From: Chloroflexota bacterium
GTDB taxonomy: Bacteria; Chloroflexota; UBA11872; VXOZ01
Length of the DNA: 64,000 nucleotides
Direction: 5' to 3'
Assembly (NCBI GenBank): GCA_965221905.1
Contig: OZ244922.1
Location: 864,001 to 928,000, forward strand
Of this stretch, positions 29,886 through 57,030 are shown in pieces. The first letter of the stretch is position 1. Every line of letters starts with the position of its first letter. The notes under the pieces were generated by a model that was not told where the DNA came from, searched no databases, and saw only the letters and a program-made list of their open reading frames with translations. Position numbers and translations under genes: made by a program.

Positions 29886-29973
29886 GTGCGGCGAAGGAGT
29901 TTTCGGCGTAAACGTGACCCTCTTCAAGACAGCCCTGCCCGTCTTCCCCCTCACCCTAGCCCTCTCCCTCGAT

Positions 29974-30211
29974 GAGACCTTTGCGTAACTTCCGCCAGAG
30001 GCGCAAGAATTACTCCCTCTCCCTGGAGTGTACAGACCGGGGTGAGGGGATTCTTGCTTACCCTGTCTTTTCTACCTCTAAGACCTATATGTAAGTGTGC
30101 AATATCGGTGAAAATGGCCCCGATTGCGGGGATTCCCCCCCCCCTCACCCTAACCCTCTCCCGGCGGGAGAGGGGACTTTGTCGCCTCGGCAAGGGTTAT
30201 GCAAAGGTCTC
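29974..30211. mobile_element. 238-bp non-autonomous MITE with IS5/IS1106-like ends, inserted in a CCCTCACCC REP hairpin
   Basis: Terminal IRs GAGACCTTTGCGTAAC / GTTATGCAAAGGTCTC; 6-bp direct repeat CTCGAT at 29968-29973 and 30212-30217. Confidence 0.85.
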
Positions 30212-30358
30212 CTCGATGGAGAGGGAACAATACGCGGTCATGAGGGATGGCGGAAGGCGTCCCTGGCCTATGGTCGGACTCAACGGATGCCCCTACTAAA
30301 TCCTAGAACGACAGCAAGGGGCCGAACTCTCGCGTGGCATCCTGCGACGGAGGAGAAT

Positions 30359-55439: not shown

Positions 55440-55489
55440 TGGTTCGGCATTCTTGACTCAAGCAGTTCCCCTCACCCTAGCCCTCTCCC

Positions 55490-56754
55490 TGTACAGACTG
55501 GGGAGATAGGTAACAGATGTTCGGGGACATAGGTTACACATTTTGTTCATTGAGGTCTAGGGTTTTTATGCGTTGGACGGAGAAGTAAACGTCCCATACG
55601 CCGTCGGTTTGGGTGGGTCTGAGCGCGACCCGCTTATGCGTGAAGGCCTTCCCCACACGCAGTGGTCTGCCCTGGAAAGAGATGCGACCGGAGACATCCA
55701 CAGAACGCACGTGGTCGTCGGGGGCGTAGTCGATGGCGGGTAGGGTCTCGGGGAAAGTTTTACCACTGGGTGTGTATCGGCTGACCGGGGTGTCGAGGTC
55801 GAGGGCATAGTGTGGGCGCTCCAAGTTGTAGAAGTCACGCCAGGTGTCGAAGGCACGTTGGCAGTGGGGGAGGTCGGTGAAGGTGCGGCCTGTAAGCAAC
55901 TCGCTCTTGAGCGAGCGGTGGAAGCGTTCCAGCTTGCCGAGTGTTTGGGGATGGTACGGTCTGCTGTGGTGCACGCTGATGCCCAGTTGCATGAGCCAGA
56001 CGGTGAGGGGAGTAAAGGGATGAGCGCTGTCGCTACCCCAGGGGGAGCCGTTTTCTATCAGCATGGCCTGAGGCAAGCCGTAACGCCGAAAGACGTGGGT
56101 GAGGCGGTCTTGGACCGTGTTTCCCTGCTCGTTGGCACAGGCCCGCAGCGCCAGGTTGAAGCGAGAGTGATCGTCCAGGAGGGTGAACGGATGGCAGCGG
56201 TGGTGTTGCACGGCAATGTGTCCCTTGAAGTCCATCTGCCACAGCTCGTTGGGTTCGGCACGCTCAAAGCGCACATAGGGTGTGTGCTTGGCAGCCTCGG
56301 ATTCATCGATGAGCCCATGTCGTCTGAGAATGGCAGTGATCGTGCTCTTGGCAGGCACGCCCGTATAGCCGCGATCCTGCAACATCCTGGCCAGCACATG
56401 CGCACCCTTGGTCGGATGCGCCTGGCGCAACGCTACGACAAGCTCCTCCATCTCCCGGCTCGTCTGTTGCGGACTGGAGTGCGGGCGCCTGGGCAGATCG
56501 TGAAGGCTCTGCCCTCCGGCCTGCGCGTACCGCCGCAGCCACTTGTAGCCGGTCTTGCGGCTGATTTCCATGCGACGACACAACTCGCTCATGTTCACTC
56601 CGTCAGATTGTGCCAGAGCAATAAACTCTTTGCGCAAAGACATGGGTGTACCCACTTTCCAAGGCATGGTCCTCCTCCATCTAAAAGATTCTCCATGCCT
56701 TATGGTGTAACCTATGTCCCCGAACATGTGTAACCTATGTCCCCGGTCTATACA
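55490..56754 (-). mobile_element. Complete IS481-family insertion sequence (1265 bp)
   Basis: TGT...ACA ends; about 50-bp imperfect IRs (TGTACAGACTGGGGAGATAGGTAACAGATGTTCGGGGACATAGGTTACAC); 5-bp TSD CTCCC at 55485-55489 and 56755-56759. Confidence 0.95.
55534..56667 (-). CDS. IS481 family DDE transposase; second catalytic Asp appears as Glu
   Basis: MPWK start follows GGAGGAGG; HTH ISRKTGYKW; WQMDFKG, DDHSR, IENGSPW and QTLGKLERFHR. Confidence 0.93.
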   Translation of the reverse strand: MPWKVGTPMSLRKEFIALAQSDGVNMSELCRRMEISRKTGYKWLRRYAQAGGQSLHDLPRRPHSSPQQTSREMEELVVALRQAHPTKGAHVLARMLQDRGYTGVPAKSTITAILRRHGLIDESEAAKHTPYVRFERAEPNELWQMDFKGHIAVQHHRCHPFTLLDDHSRFNLALRACANEQGNTVQDRLTHVFRRYGLPQAMLIENGSPWGSDSAHPFTPLTVWLMQLGISVHHSRPYHPQTLGKLERFHRSLKSELLTGRTFTDLPHCQRAFDTWRDFYNLERPHYALDLDTPVSRYTPSGKTFPETLPAIDYAPDDHVRSVDVSGRISFQGRPLRVGKAFTHKRVALRPTQTDGVWDVYFSVQRIKTLDLNEQNV

Positions 56755-57030
56755 CTCCCCGAGGAGAGGGAACCGGAGACGCCAATGGAGCGTTATGGCG
56801 CGGTTGGTTTATCCCTGCCAACCAAACGCTCAGTCTCTACTTGCCCGTCGTCGCGCGGGGGGCTTGTCCCCCGCTTCCCCGTGTCGGGGCACAGGGCAGT
56901 CTTGGCGAGAAGAGGAAACACCAATTCAGGCTATGTGCTTAGACATAATGTCGTAGACGAACGAACGAAGACAGCACGTATTCGTTACAATGAGAGCGTG
57001 TAGCTTCTGAAACTCAATGGAGAGCGCGCC

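Follow-up and report, generated by a model that had tools for sequence, protein, structure and literature searches.

We analyzed an insertion sequence (IS) of the IS481 family that interrupts a short G/C-rich repeat in a 64,000-nucleotide stretch of the genome of a Chloroflexota bacterium (contig OZ244922.1, positions 864,001 to 928,000; this whole stretch is hereafter the window, and positions refer to it unless marked as genome positions). Orthologous empty sites and dozens of independent insertions show that an IS481 subgroup, and other miniature inverted-repeat transposable elements (MITEs) as well, use this repeat, the BoxC motif, as a landing pad with base-pair precision. We propose, with a probability of roughly 0.6, that the transposition machinery of this IS481 subgroup selects the BoxC/PIT/triplex motif as its target and inserts with a 5-bp stagger where the loop of the motif meets its tail-side arm.

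Structure of the element and its target site

The element, which starts with TGTACAGAC and finishes with GTCTATACA, is bordered by copies of the duplication CTCCC (Table 1). Its 50-bp ends are identical at 45 of 50 positions and both begin with TGT. Each end holds two 17-nt boxes placed 23 bp apart, which on the left read GGGGAGATAGGTAACAG and GGGGACATAGGTTACAC and on the right are twice the reverse complement of GGGGACATAGGTTACAC. Inverted ends together with a short target duplication are typical of the IS481 family, and the transposase matches the NCBIfam model of that family (NF033577) with 275.7 bits against a cut-off of 224, while in the same profile search it scores below the cut-offs of the IS3, IS21 and IS630 models. 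The transposase is encoded by the sole long open reading frame of the element, on the minus strand, which runs uninterrupted over the helix-turn-helix (HTH) and rve domains with no programmed frameshift; its Pfam matches are HTH domains, LZ_Tnp_IS481, rve and rve_3. In its longest form this frame extends to 56727 (397 aa) and begins within the inverted repeat; translation probably begins at the ATG at 56667, which gives the MPW start common to the relatives. In a search of solved structures, residues 14-364 aligned with IstA of IS5376 (E 6e-6), and the alignment therefore takes in the C-terminal part beyond the DDE core, roughly the last 80 residues, outside the coverage of the IS481 model.

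Without the element and one CTCCC, the site reads CCCCTCACCCTAGCCCTCTCC-CCGA-GGAGAGGG. The insertion lies between a gene for a protein with a xylose-isomerase-like TIM barrel, on the left, and a class-III aminotransferase gene, on the right, and an uninterrupted hairpin stands between the orthologous gene pair in the congeners G008, G013, G003 and G002, so the repeat predates the insertion. The site in G008 (...CCCTCACCCTAACCCTCTCC-CCGA-GGAGAGGG...) has arms and loop identical to the reconstruction, the loop in G013 is CCCGA, and G003 and G002 carry variant forms of the uninterrupted repeat; in G004 the repeat is absent between the two orthologous genes. An earlier note on this DNA, made from the window alone, had described an IS481 element inserted precisely into a hairpin over 55468-56770, a span that comprises the element and both repeat halves. 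The profile match, the orthologous empty sites and the fact that the site is typical of the clade bear this description out, and the reconstructed empty site, the CTCCC duplication and the two boxes per end of the note were all read directly from the sequence. Its statement that the first 21 nt are shared with a second hairpin, hit by a MITE, also holds: 22 nt (55468-55489) are identical to 29947-29968, beside the element called MITE-A below, and the 21 nt comprise the near arm of the repeat together with its third block and the linker between them.

The target motif, CCCTCTCC-TCGG-GGAGAGGG-CTA-GGGTGAGGGG, consists of three consecutive G/C-rich blocks, namely a pyrimidine arm, a purine arm that follows after a loop, and a purine tail behind a short linker, and it is multi-copy and intergenic. 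We counted 52 intact hairpins in the genome, 44 of them with the third block, and the hairpin part folds at about -9 kcal/mol with DNA parameters. The E. coli TMECO motifs, CCCTCTCCC-TTGA-GGGAGAGGG-TTA-GGGTGAGGGT in Table 1 of Holder et al. 2015 (PMC4666352), with CCCTCTCCCTTGAGGGAGAGGGTTAGGGTGAGGGT as an example from the same source, have the same blocks in near-identical letters. Judged by this match of letters, the target is the BoxC/PIT/"triplex motif" of these authors. Such motifs, which were recognised as early as the 1990s and are present in hundreds of genomes, are linked to rearranged intergenic regions; Holder et al. called the mechanism unclear (PMC4666352).

The earlier note had taken the palindrome for a repetitive extragenic palindromic (REP) sequence; more exactly, it is the BoxC/PIT/triplex motif and not a RAYT-type REP. 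The RAYT type was ruled out because the RAYT-like gene of the genome is flanked by a different repeat and the target lacks a GTAG/CGTC head. The single Y1_Tnp gene above the cut-off, a 168-aa reading frame at genome 3327899-3328216 (L091), is flanked by tandem and inverted copies of the GTAG-headed palindromic repeat GTAGCGCGGGGGCTTGTCCCCCGC.

Target preference across related elements

To place the insertion within its clade, we took the best 80 of 573 detected relatives of the transposase, mostly from Chloroflexota or Dehalococcoidia metagenome-assembled genomes (MAGs) and with 55-99% protein identity. The scored set comprised 82 elements, that is, 76 loci with both ends defined and six elements of this genome. 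Three loci that were too short (L056, L057 and L078) and one with a missing far end (L034) were left out of the counts; the visible flanks of L034, L056 and L078 are repeat-like. Simple pattern rules were used, by which an element lies in the motif when both arms, CCCTCTCC and GGAGAGGG, occur with at most 1 mismatch and at most 22 nt from the rebuilt junction.

Both arms were found at the junction in 55 of the 82 elements. Among 3,080 positions drawn at random from the flanks of these loci, 13 (0.4%) scored likewise, and among 5,000 drawn from this genome none did (Fisher p about 6e-85 for the preference against control). The earlier note had named, as what would refute its reading, other copies in non-REP targets at background frequency; the counts are clearly not of this kind. 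By clade, the counts were 9/13 for relatives with 97-99% identity together with the genome's own elements, 18/20 at 72-81%, 13/15 at 68-70% and 11/12 at 66-67%, or 51 of 60 for all clades with at least 66% protein identity. These clades form one supported group in a quick maximum-likelihood tree search, with 48 of 54 rows in the motif and an SH-aLRT (approximate likelihood-ratio test) support of 99. Per genome, the values were 13/13, 9/10, 7/8, 3/5 and 2/15, the last in a genome whose elements are at 58% identity; the association ratio is thus high in three genomes with at least four copies (13/13, 9/10 and 7/8). The outer flanks of the elements are unique except for 2 pairs, and the insertions are therefore independent events. 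Repeat-like flanks also surround copies in MAGs placed in Desulfobaccales, Thiodiazotropha, Desulfurivibrio and Glaciihabitans.

Position and orientation of insertions

The duplication is 5 or 6 bp long in 62 of the 82 elements, and its letters mirror the local loop sequence (CTCCC, TCCCG, CCCAT, CCCGT and others), as expected of real transposition. A tail on one side only is present in 49 of the 68 elements with a duplication. When repeats were aligned with the tail on the left, 33 of 39 duplications began 4-6 nt inside the tail-side arm and 1 at the mirror position in the far arm (binomial p 4e-9), while the elements themselves lie in either orientation relative to the repeat (26 versus 23, p 0.78). 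A cut fixed relative to the tail, combined with free orientation of the element, indicates that the whole asymmetric repeat is recognised rather than a plain symmetric hairpin; this asymmetry shows that the third block counts in target choice.

The exact offset differs between clades. It is 4-5 in the closest ones (CTCCC, TCCCC) and 6 in the 68-70% clade (CCCGT, CCCAT), whereas members of the 66-67% clade cut in the middle of the loop (GGCCT) of a variant with a longer, 15-bp stem, in which the tail is also present. The 55-58% clade uses the arm variants CCCCCCTCCTGG... and CCCCCTCTCCGC..., and its sites outside canonical repeats are G/C-rich purine/pyrimidine tracts, with a median run of 12.5 versus 8 and a GGG/CCC value of 8.5 versus 1.

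Copies and derivatives in the same genome

The host genome is a single contig of 3.52 Mb, in which a second full copy of the element (genome 154996-156283) is 99% identical to that of the window; a tblastn search of the genome detected no transposase copy beyond these two. The second copy has three boxes at its transposase-proximal end (154996-155070), amounting to 23 bp extra, and lacks a target duplication, which suggests a rearrangement beside it. Its flanks are a small nested hairpin of a composite repeat on one side and unrelated DNA on the other.

In the window transposase, the catalytic motifs WQMDFKG and GKLERF are present, and the second Asp, identified as the second catalytic Asp by alignment to IstA, is replaced by Glu (..IENG..). 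Both full copies of the genome read ..MLIENGSPW.., where 77 of 77 relatives have ..DNG... From this exchange of a catalytic residue, both copies are probably impaired or only weakly active, in agreement with their low number, namely 2 here compared with as many as 13 kept loci from a single related genome.

Four MITE derivatives of 264-287 bp carry both IS ends (genome 485289-485575, 856640-856903, 3278343-3278629 and 3374126-3374412). They fall into two sequence subfamilies, and all four are inserted in repeats of this kind, flanked by duplications of 4-6 bp; several further partial matches to them were found in the congener G003. A solitary IS end at genome 607289 adjoins a repeat tail, and the flank of another end, at genome 2681840, is unrelated to the repeat. 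Six solitary 14-nt IS tips (TGTAYAGACCGGGG) are joined to repeat blocks, one in the window (Table 1) and five at genome 48520, 66039, 571937, 750319 and 3201138. These tips are probably remnants of insertions lost through deletion between short matching runs (CCCCGG, GGGGA) of tip and repeat.

Other mobile elements in the same repeat

MITE-A interrupts another copy of the repeat in the window. Six clean MITE-A pairs in the genome have 5-6-bp duplications centred on the loop. The end motifs of this element (GAGACCTTTGCRTAAC ends) number about 60 genome-wide, with a repeat arm just outside in 36 of the 60, and 14 of the 52 intact hairpins lie at most 90 nt from such an end. Two of the IS481-type MITEs are inserted in repeat copies internal to MITE-A, and tandem MITE-A half-units occur at genome 2034244-2034632. 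As MITE-A carries copies of the repeat, the landing pads are partly multiplied by the elements that land in them. No autonomous partner of MITE-A was found in the genome, where paired ends are never more than 428 bp apart (pairing was allowed up to 800 bp).

Each of the two DUF559 (Vsr-like nuclease) genes of the genome, at 116898-117330 (L115) and 3498761-3499190 (L114), is bracketed by inverted BoxC-type repeats, and the 3' end of each gene reads into the tail block of the repeat. MITE-A was considered as a deletion derivative of such a cassette and this was ruled out, the alignment being limited to repeat parts of 33-36 nt.

The repeat orthologous to the window target has been filled in other genomes too. 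In G015 it holds about 570 bp of nested MITE-A-type elements with the duplication CCCAG, and in G010 (L099, locus about 105-330) a third MITE of about 225 bp, with ends CTGACAGGGGTAGGTA...CTTGTCAG (CTGACA...TGTCAG) and CTCCCC on both sides. The ends of this third MITE faintly resemble those of the IS481 type. Judged by their ends, the element kinds that independently hit this orthologous repeat number at least three. The use of one palindrome family by two unrelated elements, as claimed in the earlier note, is accordingly upheld for MITE-A by the six clean cases and its different ends, with the unrelatedness established for the ends only. In the accessible text of Holder et al. 2015 (PMC4666352), BoxC has no association with transposons or transposases and the cause of local instability is left open, whereas in the present data mobile elements of at least three kinds land in the motif.

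Related elements in Proteobacteria

Relatives at 47-50% identity include ISRm20 and E. coli yagA, annotated as 'IS481-like element ISEc19 family transposase'. The K-12 yagA product of ISEc19 has about 50% full-length protein identity to the window transposase, and the ends of ISEc19 follow the same plan, with a TGTAC... tip and then two GGrGACAT... boxes. In K-12 MG1655 (L103, locus 917-1000), the ISEc19 end abuts GTCCCCTCTCCCCTTTGGGG, which is made up of the arm, the loop and the initial 4 nt of the middle block. This half BoxC has the same relative position to the IS end as in the window; the intact TMECO number 3 (PMC4666352, Table 1) is 22 nt away. The far end of the K-12 copy is truncated, so that its duplication is unreadable. 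As a separate observation, this yagA/ISEc19 remnant abuts a half BoxC, and the accessible text of Holder et al. (PMC4666352) reported transposase remnants to be absent near such motifs.

Elsewhere in E. coli, four of five distinct sites of ISEc19-like copies are outside BoxC. The 5-bp duplication also occurs at E. coli sites outside the repeat, and the stagger is therefore the transposase's own. For a wider view, we inspected six plasmid copies with resolved ends, from Mesorhizobium, Sinorhizobium (two), Acidovorax, Cupriavidus and Pseudomonas; a Burkholderia copy was left out because its ends were unresolved.

Proposed mechanism and alternative explanations

Under the proposed mechanism, a DDE transposase would bind the two boxes in each end and a circular copy would probably be formed, as in the IS3/IS481 group, whose pathway is copy-out/paste-in through a circle. 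The ends would then be joined to the target where the hairpin loop meets the tail-adjoining arm, with a stagger of 5 bp, which would leave CTCCC in duplicate and the two halves of the split repeat still recognisable. The asymmetric repeat would be read as a whole, most likely by the transposase itself, and since an insertion there would be harmless to genes, copies would persist. The observed basis of this proposal is the family identity, the ends, the duplication, the orthologous empty site, the clade-wide preference and the positional asymmetry; from these we infer both the transposition pathway and recognition of the target by the transposase itself.

Several points weigh against this reading. 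The 55-58% clade is in the motif at only 4 of 22 sites, and the site counts rest on the best 80 of the 573 detected relatives. An extension of the preference to Proteobacteria failed, with 0 of 6 plasmid copies with resolved ends and 1 of 5 distinct E. coli sites in the motif, so that a strong preference is confined to the Chloroflexota-centred clade. Given the Glu in place of Asp in the DNG motif, it may be that the protein now encoded by the window copy never mobilised it. In addition, a resemblance of the repeat to the IS ends or boxes was sought and rejected, as the best local alignment score of 7 is reached by 19% of random genomic 60-mers; the ends are no more repeat-like than random DNA, which leaves no visible logic by which an end-binding domain would read the target. 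Finally, the repeats are near-identical within a genome, and readings by sequence and by shape are therefore inseparable there.

This last point bears on an alternative that we regard as possible but on the unlikely side, in which shape and not sequence is recognised: the repeat would transiently adopt a non-B structure, either an extruded hairpin or an intrastrand triplex, and the transpososome would capture the distorted junction. Such a reading would fit the change of target arm letters among clades under a constant three-block plan (the 15-bp stem of the 66-67% clade, and CCCCCCTCCTGG... and CCCCCTCTCCGC... in the 55-58% clade), the weight of the third block (33 versus 1) and the fact that the non-canonical sites of the 55-58% clade are still G/C-rich purine/pyrimidine tracts. 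According to the accessible text of PMC4666352, the isolated single strand of the motif folds in vitro into an intrastrand triplex that is stable, but the double-stranded form gave no triplex signal. The base-pair-precise cuts with clade-specific offsets (4-5, 6 or the loop centre) fit protein-DNA contacts instead, and ordinary hairpins of at least 7 bp, which are common (8-9% of random positions), are nevertheless unused.

It is rather improbable that a helper bound to or cutting the repeat, such as a nucleoid protein or the DUF559 nuclease, guides the element. Inverted repeat copies stand on either side of both DUF559 genes of the genome, and a shared host-side cue would explain why several unrelated elements use one repeat; the places of cutting differ, however, being at the arm/loop junction for the IS481 type and centred on the loop for MITE-A, and the 5-bp duplication is unchanged outside the repeat in E. 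coli. Random insertion followed by survival of only those copies in harmless spots is very improbable and contradicted by the data. Although the repeats are intergenic and an insertion there would probably be neutral, the 52 intact hairpins, a tiny fraction of the 3.52 Mb, hold most copies, at a position within the repeat that is fixed to about 1 bp (random flank positions, 0.4%). Least probable of all is that the hairpin arms belong to the element as longer inverted ends, or that the element spread between repeats by gene conversion: the inverted-repeat alignment does extend into the flanks at many loci, with a perfect 22-nt extension on both sides in L010, but this is contradicted by the uninterrupted orthologous repeats, the 52 empty repeats of the genome, loops and duplications that vary by site and match the local repeat, and a tail that is one-sided in 49 of 68 elements.

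Selection of the motif by the transposition machinery would admit a broader reading, which we put forward with considerable doubt. The IS481 subgroup, from Chloroflexota to the ISEc19 remnant of K-12, would have acquired the ability to read the BoxC/triplex motif, which is pan-bacterial, as an object of three blocks, perhaps through a non-B form, and would be the first natural insertion sequence homing to a triplex-forming repeat. Together with the MITEs and the DUF559 cassettes, it would explain the multiplication of the motif and the instability of intergenic DNA.

Relation to known systems

In the open full-text literature, with subscription journals and ISfinder outside the search, we found no description of IS481 elements targeting extragenic palindromes, in line with the earlier note, which was not aware of such targeting being well described for IS481. 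Members of the IS110 family such as IS621, ISPpu9, ISPpu10 and ISPa11 resemble the window element in their site-specific insertion into repeated palindromes, but they are DEDD recombinases without typical inverted ends and with a duplication of 0-2 bp, so that enzyme and mechanism are unrelated. IS110-family recombinases are guided by a bridge RNA. The choice of a triplex-forming site by a transposon has a precedent in Tn7: Rao, Miller and Craig reportedly found in 2000 that it is attracted to triplex DNA, using an artificial triplex in vitro and with TnsC choosing the target, whereas an in vivo triplex of the repeat studied here is hypothetical.

The REP-targeting families named in the accessible text of Tobes and Pareja 2006 (PMC1525189) are IS3, IS110, IS4, IS256 and IS5, with IS481 unmentioned there, and IS481 would thus be a sixth IS family homing to repeated palindromes. 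The closest likeness in that source is with IS1397, ISKpn1 and ISPsy8 of the sister family IS3, also DDE elements, which insert in a repeated extragenic palindrome with a short duplication, leave a repeat that can be rebuilt from the flanks, and have all or nearly all copies associated with repeats. The rebuilt site of the window element equals the orthologous uninterrupted site, which corresponds to a 'type 1 association' in the terms of these authors. In contrast to the IS3 group, the window element belongs to IS481, has a single reading frame without a frameshift and targets BoxC instead of REP or PU; its duplication measures 5-6 bp, as against 3 bp for IS1397, ISKpn1 and ISPsy8, and its cut lies off the symmetry axis toward the tail block, whereas ISPsy8 and ISRm22 are cut on the axis (PMC1525189). 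Petrillo et al. 2008 mention BoxC with no link to an IS. On intrastrand triplexes in connection with transposases, the open full-text literature yielded only Holder et al. and a cyanobacterial review.

The landing of mobile elements in BoxC provides a concrete source for the intergenic instability linked to the motif. The asymmetry that the third block gives to the target allows readings by sequence and by shape to be told apart experimentally, and with a related element and 23 BoxC copies in E. coli K-12 (PMC4666352, Table 1), target choice is testable there. On the practical side, a transposase with a defined and harmless repeat as its target is of interest as a tool for safe-site insertion.

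Feature coordinates and minor observations

Table 1. Positions in the window of the IS481-family element, its split target repeat and the related MITE-A site.
Feature	Position	Strand	Basis
IS481-family insertion sequence, 1,265 bp	55490..56754	- (transposase strand)	sequence, profile match, inverted ends
Target-site duplication CTCCC, left copy	55485..55489	.	sequence
Target-site duplication CTCCC, right copy	56755..56759	.	sequence
Transposase-distal terminal inverted repeat, tip TGTACAGACT, boxes GGGGAGATAGGTAACAG at 55500-55516 and GGGGACATAGGTTACAC at 55523-55539	55490..55539	+	sequence
Transposase-proximal terminal inverted repeat, tip TGTATAGACC (minus strand), boxes at 56705-56721 and 56728-56744	56705..56754	-	sequence
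Left part of split repeat: tail block CCCTCACCC, linker TAG, tail-side arm CCCTCTCC(C); last 5 nt are the duplication copy	55468..55489	+	equal to 29947-29968; orthologous uninterrupted copies L098, L101, L094, L100
Right part of split repeat: duplication, loop remainder CGA, far arm GGAGAGGG	56755..56770	+	sequence, orthologous sites
Transposase gene, 377 aa, ATG after GGAGGAGG	55534..56667	-	start picked by comparison with relatives
Codon GAA (Glu) in place of Asp of the ..DNG.. catalytic motif; adjoining Met replaced by Ile	56053..56055	-	Asp in 77/77 relatives
MITE-A, 238 bp, ends GAGACCTTTGCGTAAC / GTTATGCAAAGGTCTC, in the loop of another repeat copy, with internal repeat copies of its own	29974..30211	.	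sequence, genome pairs
MITE-A duplication CTCGAT (the loop), other copy at 30212-30217; repeat halves 29947-29967 and 30218-30225	29968..29973	.	sequence
Solitary 14-nt IS481-type tip TGTACAGACCGGGG joined to repeat tail inside MITE-A (putative footprint)	30029..30042	+	sequence

A copy of the GTAGCGCGGGGGCTTGTCCCCCGC-type repeat lies at 56850-56874, just downstream of the IS, and is not targeted. In two loci of a congener, L001 and L002, which are 99% identical copies, shared extra letters (..ACGCGG) stand between the repeat arm and the IS tip, with no clean duplication; they may be flanking DNA that was carried along or the product of recombination between copies.

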